Shown here in pieces: positions 47,285-51,437 of a DNA stretch of 64,000 nucleotides. The position numbers and the translations under genes were made by a program. The first letter of the stretch is position 1, and every line of letters begins with the position of its first letter. The notes beneath the pieces were generated by a model that saw only the letters and a program-made list of their open reading frames with translations, made no database searches and had not been told where the DNA came from. Source of the stretch: Spirochaetia bacterium (GTDB lineage: Bacteria > Spirochaetota > Spirochaetia > DSM-2461); assembly GCA_963668315.1 (NCBI GenBank), contig OY764216.1, positions 4,704,001 to 4,768,000 of the forward strand, in the 5' to 3' direction.

Positions 47285-47413
47285 TTCCCACATATAGAAA
47301 GGAAATAGATGTCTAATGATAATATCATATCCATAAATTGTCAATTTTATATTGAAAGACCACATGTAGTGTGATAAAATGCATTTAACATTGATTAACA
47401 CTTCTTATAGTGG
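47285..47413 (+). promoter_or_regulatory. nrd operon promoter with NrdR boxes
   Basis: TTGAAA (47352), 17 bp, TAAAAT with an extended TG. NrdR-like boxes: AGACCACATGTAGTGT (47357-47372), ACACTTCTTATAGTGG (47398-47413) and a weaker TTCCCACATATAGAAA (47285-47300). Confidence 0.75.
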
Positions 47414-47437: not shown

Positions 47438-47911
47438 ATGAAATGCCCTTTCTGCGGAAAGTTGGATGACAAAGTACTGGAATCGCGTCAGAACGGAATA
47501 GGAACGACTATCCGTAGACGAAGGGAATGCCTTTCCTGCGGTTACCGCTTTACATCCTATGAAAAAATTGAAGAAATAACCATCAAGGTTATCAAAAGGG
47601 ACGGAAGCCGGGATCCATTCGATAAGAAGAAAATAGAGCGGGGTCTGCTCAGAGCGATTGAAAAGCGCCCCGTGTCCCAGCTGGAGATCGATGACATCCT
47701 TAATGCCCTTGAGGATGAAGTCGAAATGAAATGCCGGGCGACCCATGAAATCCTGGCTTCAGAACTGGGTGACATGGTAATGGACAGGCTGTTTGATCTT
47801 GATAAGGTTGCTTATGTCCGCTTTGCTTCTGTCTATCAGAAGTTTGAGGGCGTAGAGGAATTTGTCGAGGTTATTCACAATCTATCTAAAAAAAATAACA
47901 AAAAAAAATAG
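47438..47911 (+). CDS. nrdR: Transcriptional repressor NrdR
   Basis: MKCPFCG, IRRRRECLSCGYRFTSYE, ATP cone and AYVRFASVY. Confidence 0.97.
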   Translation: MKCPFCGKLDDKVLESRQNGIGTTIRRRRECLSCGYRFTSYEKIEEITIKVIKRDGSRDPFDKKKIERGLLRAIEKRPVSQLEIDDILNALEDEVEMKCRATHEILASELGDMVMDRLFDLDKVAYVRFASVYQKFEGVEEFVEVIHNLSKKNNKKK

Positions 47912-47954: not shown

Positions 47955-50060
47955 GTGACTAAGGGAGAAACTACGGACTGGAAACAGTTCCTTGGAGTGG
48001 AGAAGGGCTCCTCCGACCTGTCTAATTTCGCGGTTAAGCGGATTATCAAACGAGACGGGACTATAGAAAAATACAGCAGGGACAGAATAGCGGAGGCGAT
48101 AGAAAAAGCCATTACCGCCGTAGAGGATTCATCCGATGAAGAGCTGGCGACAATGCTCACCGACGCGGTGGAACAGAAACTTGTCCTTTTCATGGAAGGC
48201 CGCCATCCCAATTCCATCCCTGCCGTGGAGGAGATCCAGGATATCGTGGAAACGGTCCTGATCGAAAGCAAGAGGGTGGATCTGGCCAAAGCCTACATCC
48301 TCTACAGGGCTAAGCACGAAGCGATCAGGGATGCACAGAAGCTGATGCTCGATATTAATGAGACCATGGACGGATACCTGTCCCAGGCAGACTGGAGAGT
48401 GAATGAGAATGCGAATGTCAATTTCTCACTGGGAGGACTCATTCTCCACAATTCCGGCACGGTAACGGCCAACTACTGGCTCAGGAACATCTACTCAGCC
48501 GATGTGGCCGACGCCCATAAGTCGGGTGCCATGCATATCCATGACCTGTCCATGTTCTCCGGCTACTGCGCCGGCTGGTCCATCAGGCAGCTCATAGCAG
48601 AAGGTCTGGGCGGTGTACCCGAGAAAATCACCTCCAAGCCGGCGGCTCACCTTTCCACTCTGGTCTTTCAGATCGTCAACTTCCTGGGAATTATGCAGAA
48701 CGAATGGGCCGGAGCCCAGGCTCTTGCCAGCTTCGATACCTACCTGGCTCCCTTTGTGAAGGTGGACAATCTCTCCTTCAAGGAAGTGAAGCAGTGCATC
48801 CAGAGCTTTGTCTTCGGAGTCAACACTCCTTCGCGCTGGGGTTCTCAGGCTCCTTTTACCAACATTACCATGGACTGGACCGTTCCGGCCGACCTGGCGG
48901 AGAAAGCGGCTATCGTAGGCGGAGAGGAACAGGATTTCACCTACGGCGACTGTAAGGCCGAGATGGACATGCTCAACAAAGCCTTTATCGAGCTGATGCT
49001 TGAGGGAGACGCAAGCGGAAGAGGTTTCGCCTACCCCATCCCTACGTACAACATTACCGAGGATTTTGACTGGGAGTCACCCAATTCCCAGCTGCTCTTC
49101 GAAATGACGGCCAAATACGGTACACCCTATTTCCAGAATTTCATCAATTCCGATCTGAATCCCAGCGACGTGCGTTCCATGTGCTGCCGTCTGCAGCTGG
49201 ATAAACGGGAGCTGAGGAAACGGGGTGGCGGACTTTTCGGATCGGACGAGTTCACCGGTTCACTGGGCGTTGTCACCATCAATCTGCCCCGCATCGGTTA
49301 TCTGGCCGAGAACAAGGTGGATTTTTACGCCCGTCTGAGCCATATGATGGATCTGGCCTCCGAATCTCTGGTTGTGAAGAGAAAAGTGATCAGCCATCTT
49401 CTGGATGCGGGTCTATTCCCCTATACCAAGCGGTATCTCCAGCACTTGAACAACCACTTCTCCACCATCGGTCTCGTGGGTATGAACGAATGTCTCATCA
49501 ATTTCATTGGGAAGGACATCACCACCGAAGACGGAAGCCGTCTGGCCGAAGAGATCCTTGATTTCATGAGAAAACGGCTGGCCGATTATCAGGAGGATAC
49601 GGGCGACCTTTACAACCTGGAAGCGACTCCCGCGGAGAGTACCAGTTACCGCCTGGCCCTTCACGACAAGAAGCACTACCCGGAGATTCTTACCGCCGGC
49701 ACGGAAGACTCTCCCTACTATACCAACTCGACTCAGCTGCCCGTCAACTTCACCGAAGATCTTTTCGATGCGCTTGACCGACAGGATCCCCTGCAGACCA
49801 AGTATACGGGCGGAACCGTATTCCACGGTTTTCTCGGGGAATCCATCAAAGAGTGGAAGAGCTGTATGGAACTGGTAAAGGCCATCTGCAACAACTACCG
49901 CCTGCCCTATTTCACGATCTCCCCCACCTACTCCATCTGTCCCTGCCACGGATACCTGGAAGGGGAACACTTCAGCTGTCCCCACTGTGAAAAGGAGCTC
50001 GAGCAGGCCAGAAAGGAATTGCAGAAGCTGGAAGAGGACAGGGAAACGATCGCCGGTTAG
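47955..50060 (+). CDS. nrdD: Class III ribonucleotide reductase catalytic barrel; lacks the glycyl-radical loop
   Basis: ATP cone, HIHDL, YCAGW, SMCCRL, NLEATPAES and YYTNS. Ends after the Zn site CPCH...CPHC with no R-x-x-G-Y motif. Confidence 0.95.
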   Translation: MTKGETTDWKQFLGVEKGSSDLSNFAVKRIIKRDGTIEKYSRDRIAEAIEKAITAVEDSSDEELATMLTDAVEQKLVLFMEGRHPNSIPAVEEIQDIVETVLIESKRVDLAKAYILYRAKHEAIRDAQKLMLDINETMDGYLSQADWRVNENANVNFSLGGLILHNSGTVTANYWLRNIYSADVADAHKSGAMHIHDLSMFSGYCAGWSIRQLIAEGLGGVPEKITSKPAAHLSTLVFQIVNFLGIMQNEWAGAQALASFDTYLAPFVKVDNLSFKEVKQCIQSFVFGVNTPSRWGSQAPFTNITMDWTVPADLAEKAAIVGGEEQDFTYGDCKAEMDMLNKAFIELMLEGDASGRGFAYPIPTYNITEDFDWESPNSQLLFEMTAKYGTPYFQNFINSDLNPSDVRSMCCRLQLDKRELRKRGGGLFGSDEFTGSLGVVTINLPRIGYLAENKVDFYARLSHMMDLASESLVVKRKVISHLLDAGLFPYTKRYLQHLNNHFSTIGLVGMNECLINFIGKDITTEDGSRLAEEILDFMRKRLADYQEDTGDLYNLEATPAESTSYRLALHDKKHYPEILTAGTEDSPYYTNSTQLPVNFTEDLFDALDRQDPLQTKYTGGTVFHGFLGESIKEWKSCMELVKAICNNYRLPYFTISPTYSICPCHGYLEGEHFSCPHCEKELEQARKELQKLEEDRETIAG

Positions 50061-50135
50061 GGAATAGCCGTTTTTCGTTACACCTTTGGAAAATAATCTG
50101 CCTTGACCCGCTCAAGGCATACGAGGAGAGAGATA

Positions 50136-50756
50136 ATGACATTAGAAAGCATAGACAGCAGAATTGACGAAATCAATAACAGAATCAAAGCGATTGAAGG
50201 AAGACCGACGGAAGTCTACAGCCGCATCGTAGGATATTACCGCTCCGTTAAAAACTGGAACAATGGAAAAAGCGCCGAGTATAAAGTACGCAAAACCTTC
50301 ATGGAACCGGAAATTACGCCCTGCCAGCCCCCGGTCCTCAATGTGGAGTTCATAGATGAAACACCCGTGGCAGAACAGGCCGTTGCCGTAACGGAAGCCG
50401 CGGCGGAAACTGTAAGCAGTGATGCCGATGACAGCCAGGCCGATCTCTTCGCCATGGACGATGCTCCCGCCGTATCTTTATCGGCAGATGAAGTGGGAAG
50501 CTACTCTTTCTTTTTCCGGAATACCTGTCCCAATTGTCCCCCTGTAAAGGAATTGATCTCCCAGCTTGGATGGGATGGACAGCATATCAATGTGGATGAG
50601 GAAGAGGGTCTAAATGCGGCAGTGGAGCATAACGTATTCACCGCCCCCACGGTCATCGTCTTCTCCCCCGAGGGAAATGAGATTTTCCGGACCGATAACG
50701 TAAAGGGCCTGAAAGAGTTCATAGAGAGCAGTGCCCAGACCGTCTCTGCCGTTTAA
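50136..50756 (+). CDS. Stand-alone NrdD glycyl-radical domain fused to a glutaredoxin/thioredoxin-like domain
   Basis: TEVYSRIVGYYRSVKNWNNGKSAEY, an acidic linker, TCPNCPPVK and cis-Pro motif TAPTVIV; has its own SD GAGGAG. Confidence 0.88.
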   Translation: MTLESIDSRIDEINNRIKAIEGRPTEVYSRIVGYYRSVKNWNNGKSAEYKVRKTFMEPEITPCQPPVLNVEFIDETPVAEQAVAVTEAAAETVSSDADDSQADLFAMDDAPAVSLSADEVGSYSFFFRNTCPNCPPVKELISQLGWDGQHINVDEEEGLNAAVEHNVFTAPTVIVFSPEGNEIFRTDNVKGLKEFIESSAQTVSAV

Positions 50757-51437
50757 ATGAAATTCGGATTGCAGAAAACCACTTTACTCGATTATCCGGG
50801 TAAAGTGGCGGCCATTCTTTTTACACCCGGATGTAATCTCCGCTGCCCCTATTGTCATAATCCGGAACTTGTTTCCGGAGGAGATGATGAGGGGCTCATC
50901 AGTCTTGATGAGGTTCGGGCTTTTCTTCTCAAACGCTCTTCCGTCCTGGGCGGTGTCGTCATCACGGGCGGAGAACCATTACTCCACGGGAATAAAATCC
51001 TGGACCTTATCAATGAAATTCACTCGCTGGGACTTTCCGTAAAAATCGATACGAACGGTCTCTTTCCCGATTTGCTTCCCCTTCTCGGGGCAGATTTCAT
51101 AGCCATGGACCTTAAAACATCTCCTTTACGCTATGGTGAACTGGGCTGCGGAATGCCCGATTATCAGGAGAGACTGAAGCGTTCAGCCCGATGGATCATT
51201 GAATCGGGAATAGAACACCAGTTCCGTACAACCCTTTGCGAAGACTTTATCAAAGAGAAGGATGTCTCCGATATGGCGGATCTTATACAGGGCTGTCAGA
51301 GTCACCGTATAACCCCTTTCCGCCCCGGCAGAACGCTGCACAGGGATTGGATCGACAAACCGGCTCCTTCGGGGGAATACGTGGAAATGATTAAAGAACT
51401 CTTTATAAAAAAAGGAATCCCCAGTCATACAGCATAA
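50757..51437 (+). CDS. nrdG: Anaerobic RNR activating enzyme (radical SAM)
   Basis: LLDYPGK, GCNLRCPYCHN, ITGGEP and DTNG. Confidence 0.93.
   Translation: MKFGLQKTTLLDYPGKVAAILFTPGCNLRCPYCHNPELVSGGDDEGLISLDEVRAFLLKRSSVLGGVVITGGEPLLHGNKILDLINEIHSLGLSVKIDTNGLFPDLLPLLGADFIAMDLKTSPLRYGELGCGMPDYQERLKRSARWIIESGIEHQFRTTLCEDFIKEKDVSDMADLIQGCQSHRITPFRPGRTLHRDWIDKPAPSGEYVEMIKELFIKKGIPSHTA

Follow-up and report, generated by a model that had tools for sequence, protein, structure and literature searches.

A probable two-chain class III ribonucleotide reductase of spirochaetes, with its glycyl loop on a small, redoxin-bearing docking chain

It now seems quite probable to us that a spirochaete operon encodes a class III ribonucleotide reductase (RNR) made of two chains, assembled through helices, in which the small chain likely bears the glycyl radical and likely re-reduces the active site. 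Judged by the sequences compared here, the split is real and conserved, and the chain with the radical loop must, on the same evidence, act in trans. The operon sits in a window of 64,000 nucleotides (the whole stretch of DNA that was analysed), part of a genome assembled as a 5.6-Mb single contig that is 97% complete, and its genes run in the order nrdR, nrdD-large, a 206-aa small gene and nrdG, all on the + strand. The cut separates the Zn site from the glycyl loop, and on both sides of it the chain ends in a heptad helix. Such a layout is easily missed, because source annotation often labels the small genes 'hypothetical', 'glutaredoxin' or full 'ribonucleoside-triphosphate reductase'. The features are given here by their positions in the window.

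47357..47372, no strand: NrdR-box-like 16-mer 5' of the operon, the single motif-rule match in the 64-kb window
47438..47911, + strand: nrdR repressor (TIGR00244, 179 bits, cut-off 124.65; ATG start taken from the sequence)
47955..50060, + strand: nrdD large chain, with ATP-cone, catalytic barrel, Zn site and C-terminal helix, without glycyl loop (PRK08270, 1093 bits)
48567..48569, + strand: Cys205, the conserved cysteine of the first strand (YCAGW), the same in all 70 aligned large chains and aligned with YCF of T. maritima
49176..49190, + strand: SMCCR (M409, C410, C411), double-cysteine finger-loop motif with methionine (motif meaning from passages of Burnim 2022)
49620..49622, + strand: Glu556 (NLEATP), putative proton donor, aligned with the Glu of T. 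maritima NIEQVP and invariant in the alignment
49938..49988, + strand: Zn site C662/H665/C675/C678, entirely within the large chain, its four ligands invariant in the alignment
49989..50057, + strand: docking helix 1, the large chain's C-terminal heptad helix, with L/I at 685, 689, 692 and 699 and predicted contacts
50058..50135, + strand: stop TAG at 50058, 75-nt gap, second in-frame stop at 50094, 8-bp hairpin at 50099-50119, SD GAGGAG at 50123-50128
50136..50756, + strand: small chain, 206 aa, with docking helix, glycyl loop, acidic linker and redoxin
50142..50198, + strand: docking helix 2, N-terminal heptad helix, residues 3-21, helical in the model (pLDDT about 85), with I/L/V at 6, 10, 13, 17 and 20
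50217..50243, + strand: putative glycyl-radical loop YSRIVGYYR, Gly33 at 50232-50234 (NRDD 532-562; RIVGYYR invariant)
50496..50747, + strand: thioredoxin-fold domain according to the structure model, with CPNC (50526-50537) and Pro171 (50646-50648)
50757..51437, + strand: nrdG activase (TIGR02495, 159 bits, cut-off 131.15), abutting the small gene (TAAATG)

The large chain reads as a class III RNR that stops short. Its open reading frame (47955-50060) opens with GTG and encodes 701 aa, with an ATP-cone and positions 1-533 of the 562 in Pfam NRDD, and it terminates after the Zn site and a tail of 23 residues past C678, with no RxxGY loop; the end of the profile, 532-562, is matched by the small protein instead (31.8 bits, cut-off 26.2). 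The NRDD match is therefore divided between two genes, just as a first-pass annotation of this DNA had claimed in stating that NrdD ends after its Zn site and that the YSRIVGYYR loop is encoded by the next gene with an SD sequence of its own. The NRDD barrel has the first-strand Cys, the finger-loop Cys and the Zn site of a class III RNR, and the RxxGY loop and adjacent NrdG are found on the next two genes. All described members of the class, however, carry loop and barrel on one polypeptide, and we speak of a class III RNR variant because the glycyl loop here sits off the barrel polypeptide. A third Cys and an active-site Glu (C410/C411, E556), with Met optional, make it NrdD2-type, these being the marks of NrdD2 in Wei's scheme according to passages of Aurelius 2015; in the same passages MCCR with Phe denotes group NrdDh4, into which the large chain would fit by its motif. 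Met409 is invariant in the 70 aligned large-chain rows, and the position of Glu556 is Leu in the 8p23 sequence in our alignment. The motifs SMCCRL, EATPAES and GSLGV, pointed out in the first-pass annotation, are all present, but GSLGV had been misread as a Cys-less finger loop: it aligns with GSFKV of T. maritima, the strand after the loop, and is also a strand in the model. The loop tip of T. maritima, SIGG, aligns with GLFG at 426-429 of the large chain.

For the small gene we chose ATG 50136 as the start because the SD sequence GAGGAG at 50123-50128 points there, 7 nt before the ATG; the ORF listing instead gives TTG at 50103. Residues 122-204 are modelled as a thioredoxin fold (pLDDT 91-98) that matches thioredoxins (best E 4.6e-5), with a CxxC opening helix 1 and a conserved Pro before the third strand, and both CPNC (131-134) and P171 are invariant or nearly so in relatives. 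Profile searches are less generous, since Glutaredoxin PF00462 does match the small ORF, but at 22.7 bits, just below the 22.9 cut-off, and NrdH-redoxin TIGR02194 matches weakly (17.2 bits against a cut-off of 85.75). The acidic linker that had been described as leading into the CPNC redoxin holds up, with mean D+E of 20% against K+R of 9% over 100 loci, and a CxxC is present in 121 of 125 parsed small genes, as CPNC in 110. The PFL-type Gly_radical domain PF01228 has no match in the small protein and in this genome matches only two PFL-like genes; nor was a second NrdD, or a second credible NrdD-type glycyl loop, found elsewhere in the 5.6 Mb. Class I nrdAB is also encoded in the genome (G000:C1, about 1542000-1545800, outside the window), presumably an aerobic back-up, and a perfect NrdR-box-like palindrome lies there at 1542048. 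Scans for operon promoters and terminators gave counts at chance level (7 against 4.3 and 6 against 4.8 expected), and for this reason we set aside as evidence a terminator-like hairpin (50054-50070) that overlies the stop of the large gene; neither this hairpin nor the 8-bp one at 50099-50119, ahead of the small-gene SD, stands above regional chance, and the large-small gap of the window folds no better than shuffles (z -0.2).

How sure can we be of the split? TAG 50058 and TAA 50094 are both in frame with the two ORFs, and the earlier argument that no single sequencing error could account for the pair is upheld by the relatives. The small protein has 729 of these at 90% clustering among 858 candidates, and its profile, with 155 clusters at 50% identity (E up to 1e-30), matched 29 of 41 related genomes. 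In a survey across spirochaetes of the kind that the first-pass annotation had proposed, the large gene ends just upstream of the small gene in 95 of 100 loci (20 from the 41-genome search and 80 others, some genomes being counted twice), a set ranked by likeness to the small chain and therefore favouring split forms; the gaps in these 95 run from -20 to 346 nt, with frames 0/1/2 used 25, 26 and 44 times, and the other five loci comprise three at contig ends and two that are unlinked. A less biased draw took in 301 genomes of the phylum, 155 of which match the small chain's first 60 residues, and among the 44 same-class matching genomes besides the host, 42 have an open frame of at most 235 aa and two are one-chain. 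In five of five complete genomes tested from one genus, 97-603 kb separate the two genes and the large chain still ends in a helix with no loop nearby, and because of this distance the split is neither error nor readthrough. A contig from a related strain (84 differences in 1,501 nt) crosses the junction without an indel, and neither stop is altered among the differences shown, 42 of the 84 not being shown. We give next to no chance to the idea that sequencing error, a pseudogene, readthrough or a frameshift yields one chain after all, as the shared frame of both ORFs in the host genome might suggest, since it is refuted by the frame and gap variation at the 95 loci and by the unlinked genes, and the two stops and the intact junction of the related strain speak against it as well. 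One genus (G055, G079, G097, G113, G219; L128-L135) has a small gene that lacks the redoxin and runs 65 residues past the loop motif, placed with nrdG behind an NrdR-box-like site of its own. In a record titled Collinsella (L053) the split NrdD nests among Treponema, likely through bin contamination or transfer.

The predicted docking helices, which are missing from the first-pass account, would explain how the chains hold together. All large chains end in a tail of 22-38 residues and all small chains begin with a head of 22-37, with a hydrophobic heptad pattern above that of shuffles (0.42 against 0.26, and 0.79 against 0.29), and prediction of the large-small complex scores 0.82 against 0.00 for the best control, a mark reached by 116 of 157 solved complexes and by 2 of 215 mismatched pairs. 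At least 71% of contacts are shared between runs, with a partner pLDDT of at least 64, and about 160 confident contacts are predicted between the chains, among them large 678-700 with small 1-21 at heptad spacing and on both heptad faces; neither the redoxin nor residues 409-411 have a confident contact in the complex prediction. The score may largely reflect solved one-chain NrdD structures, because the chains are halves of a split gene, and the helix pair is the sole part of the complex that is absent from those structures. A natural one-chain homolog, P0134, carries both helices as a hairpin (679-703 and 708-726, pLDDT 84-95). In addition, charges at large 688 and small 9 are anticorrelated (r -0.80 in 70 pairs), and the 86 rows with both positions charged divide into 64 basic/acidic, 17 acidic/basic, 5 acidic/acidic and 0 basic/basic, which makes 81 of opposite charge; this swap was picked after the fact, and we treat it as a hint only because the supported branches yield just three pairs that are independent (sign test p 0.5). 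The two helices are predicted to pair as a coiled coil, by inference an antiparallel one given the one-chain hairpin and the 688/9 charges, and small residues 25-30 are predicted to pair with large 658-662 at the Zn site, which would place Gly33 at the barrel.

How might such an enzyme work? From family chemistry we infer that NrdG would install the radical on Gly33 of the small chain, from where it would pass to one of the two SMCCR cysteines; the remaining one would form a disulfide with Cys205, in cysteine roles that are reportedly those of N. bacilliformis NrdD, and the CPNC domain, on its flexible linker, would reduce this disulfide and be recharged by thioredoxin reductase. The small chain would then be an obligate subunit, with a supply that could be set apart from that of the large chain. 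We consider it probable that the redoxin is the tethered reductant; thioredoxin reductase is present in the genome, above cut-off, and a search of this 97%-complete genome turned up neither GshA nor ferredoxin-thioredoxin reductase. The redoxin-dependent subtype proposed at first pass stands as far as the third Cys and the active-site Glu go, but not as a close match to N. bacilliformis and T. maritima, whose NrdDs lack the finger-loop Met (SCCR rather than MCCR) in passages of Burnim 2022. Those passages give a Glu without the finger-loop Met as the mark of thioredoxin-only subclades, to which the spirochaete enzyme does not belong, and state that MCCR enzymes appear equipped for formate or thioredoxin. 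Formate is thus a possible second reductant, left open because Met409 is kept and the genome holds two PFL-like genes, and the case is attractive in that one class III enzyme combines a candidate reductant on a tether with residues of both the formate and the thioredoxin type.

That the enzyme uses formate, and that its redoxin has some different task, be it to hold cysteines or the Zn site in the reduced state or to assist NrdG or the class I enzyme, we regard as unlikely. The third Cys and Glu556 define a thioredoxin-competent type, and a fused glutaredoxin is known from passages of PMC6187632 to reduce its own class I RNR, although the MCCR methionine, the pair of PFL-like genes, the class I nrdAB and the lack of a predicted redoxin contact all speak for this reading. 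The same can be said of one genus whose small chains have no redoxin (three of three loci read, with open frames of 105-148 aa in nine of nine genomes) and of phage pieces that likewise have none; because of these two cases the redoxin is dispensable. Against this, it is also the C-terminal tail of 61 of 111 longer hits, that is, of one-chain NrdDs too, and since such tails exist and one genus does without, the redoxin is not tied to the split. Redoxin-tailed sequences include some outside the spirochaete group on the tree. In the precomputed domain lists, one NrdD tail and redoxin appear together with Fe-hydrogenase and ferredoxin domains (P0159, a possible chimera), and several one-chain NrdDs (P0181, P0205, P0220-P0222) carry an NrdR-type Zn ribbon (PF22811).

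The history of the split is more tangled. Split and one-chain forms are interleaved on the tree, from which we left out P0122 (which looks mis-joined), proteins without a full core and every second locus of L021-L100, and in which the dropping of near-identical rows took 125 down to 87. In an AU test on 42 hand-picked rows, 20 against 22, a tree that unites the split forms in one clade is rejected (p 0.004), and nested among the split forms are one-chain ones whose helical inserts are of graded length. We read the order as redoxin tail first, then the split, then several re-fusions, with weak inner branches that also allow repeated splits. An order in which the hairpin insert came first and was then cut is unsupported, as the one-chain forms that bear a hairpin lie nested within the split ones; support for many inner branches is weak in that test, and of the seven changes needed three are forced by supported branches. 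Such interleaving, the rejected clade and the graded inserts count in favour of neutral fission, in which the pair works like the one-chain enzyme, the coiled coil merely restores the link, and split and fused forms interconvert without functional change. We find this somewhat doubtful, since it leaves phage-only pieces and separate operators unexplained and since the split predominates in the class (42 of 44).

Those putative operators would allow separate control of the small chain. With a consensus that we take to be that of the NrdR box, here as for 47357..47372, box-like 16-mers are found 5' of the small gene in 18 of 31 gaps of at least 60 nt, against 0.5 expected from dinucleotide shuffles, a count in which related Treponema loci are not independent. 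Nine gaps have two such sites, 42 bp apart in six of them, and this spacing (a 26-bp spacer) is the arrangement bound by NrdR in passages of PMC12051234. Paired sites of this sort are probably a putative internal NrdR-controlled promoter for the small gene and nrdG; a motif-rule scan of the host window's own large-small gap gave no NrdR box. In L025, L040, L057, L072, L079, L080, L082 and others, paired palindromes, mostly 42 bp apart, flank a TTGA(C)-like hexamer in the gap.

Phages and multi-copy genomes add a further twist. Of 80 viral loci 74 were parsed, and 17 of these, including two near-duplicate pairs, have a gene for helix plus loop with no large chain in the flank; ten viral records were searched whole, six of them at least 90% complete and one with its hit at the record's edge, and all ten hold the loop piece only. 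Viral contigs L157, L163, L171, L174, L179, L182, L184, L222 and L233 have genes that encode a docking helix and a glycyl loop in about 60-70 aa, and their records contain no large chain. In other classes of the phylum, five of five multi-copy genomes checked, picked for their multiple matches, have 3-4 short loop genes to a single large gene; those of G157, G170, G207, G249 and G303 lack helix and redoxin, and two stand in tandem in G249. Same-class genomes, 45 of them with a match, have one copy each by a host-derived query, a query that missed the loop gene of another NrdD type in G328.

Because some phages carry the helix-and-loop piece alone, the loop piece may be a replaceable part. Produced in surplus or when needed, the small chain might be exchanged once O2 has cut at Gly33, with phages supplying their own to the host's large chain, and we hold this to be very nearly as probable as its opposite. 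The helix-and-loop phage records fit such a role, as do the putative separate NrdR-type promoters, the unlinked units of small gene and nrdG, and the 3-4 loop genes per large gene in other classes. Yet the same class has one copy per genome, NrdR senses dNTP status rather than oxygen, the host window's gap has no NrdR box, and the phage piece could serve assembly instead of repair. The predicted interface is also large, with its some 160 confident contacts, and cleavage at Gly33 would leave residues 1-32 docked to the large chain as a stub. It is plausible all the same that the small chain is renewed once O2 has cleaved it, but this requires the stub to depart, and we put it at about even odds. 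The first-pass interpretation, of one exchangeable subunit that supplies both radical and reducing equivalents, is thus partly supported. In its fullest form, which we advance tentatively and would back a little less readily than the swap itself, the small chain is a plug-in cartridge of radical and reductant, zipped on by a coiled coil, renewed after O2 damage and supplied by phages in a minimal form that borrows the host large chain. If true, a glycyl-radical part that can be replaced would for the first time be known from outside the formate lyases; according to passages of a 2026 review (PMC13450708), the existence of spare-part proteins for glycyl radical enzymes other than PFL is yet to be determined. 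The layout allows a direct test, in that a 206-residue chain could be activated, cleaved and replaced on its own, and by separating radical installation from catalysis it opens NrdG access to the loop to study. One candidate for an orphan spare copy, L031, is unproven, as other contigs of its genome encode two further NrdDs, one of them one-chain and one partial.

As far as literature searches reach, and with no more weight than such searches carry, the combination of a conserved split in class III RNR, putative docking helices and a fused redoxin is a newly recognised layout. The searches covered full text, in passages of PMC9669993, PMC4390871, PMC9531940, PMC11226230, PMC6187632, PMC2795772, PMC4493059, PMC5704485, PMC12051234, PMC13450708, PMC8683613, PMC12288474, PMC3267527 and PMC3019208 (Wei 2014/2015 and RNRdb lay outside their scope), and returned no split class III RNR; split enzymes of classes I and II do occur in those passages, as does a single grx::nrdD fusion. 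Closest are the one-chain double-cysteine enzymes (T. maritima NrdD 4COI/4U3E; N. bacilliformis NrdD; NrdD2 of Wei, subclass NrdDh), which share the barrel, first-strand Cys, CCR, active-site Glu, Zn site, RxxGY loop and NrdG, whereas in the spirochaete enzyme the loop belongs to a chain of its own, which also carries the redoxin, and docking helices are added; it further differs from the T. maritima and N. bacilliformis proteins in having MCCR, not SCCR, and an ATP-cone. YfiD/GrcA of E. coli and Y06I of phage T4 are likewise small glycyl-radical-loop proteins for a large enzyme, with phage copies, but they rescue a cleaved enzyme that has its own loop and belong to PF01228; the spirochaete large chain never has a loop, so the single one, of the NrdD type PF13597 and on the small gene only, duplicates nothing in its target. 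A redoxin is similarly fused to the radical-bearing subunit in Grx-NrdB of Facklamia ignava and in one grx::nrdD fusion in Lachnospiraceae TWA4; Grx-NrdB is class I, with an N-terminal Grx and a host with GshF, unlike the class III chain with C-terminal CPNC domain described here, in whose genome no GshA was found. In the split class II RNR NrdJa/NrdJb of Pseudomonas aeruginosa the C-terminal re-reduction part is likewise a separate gene, but the chemistry is that of B12, and the separate piece is without a radical site and includes a Zn finger.
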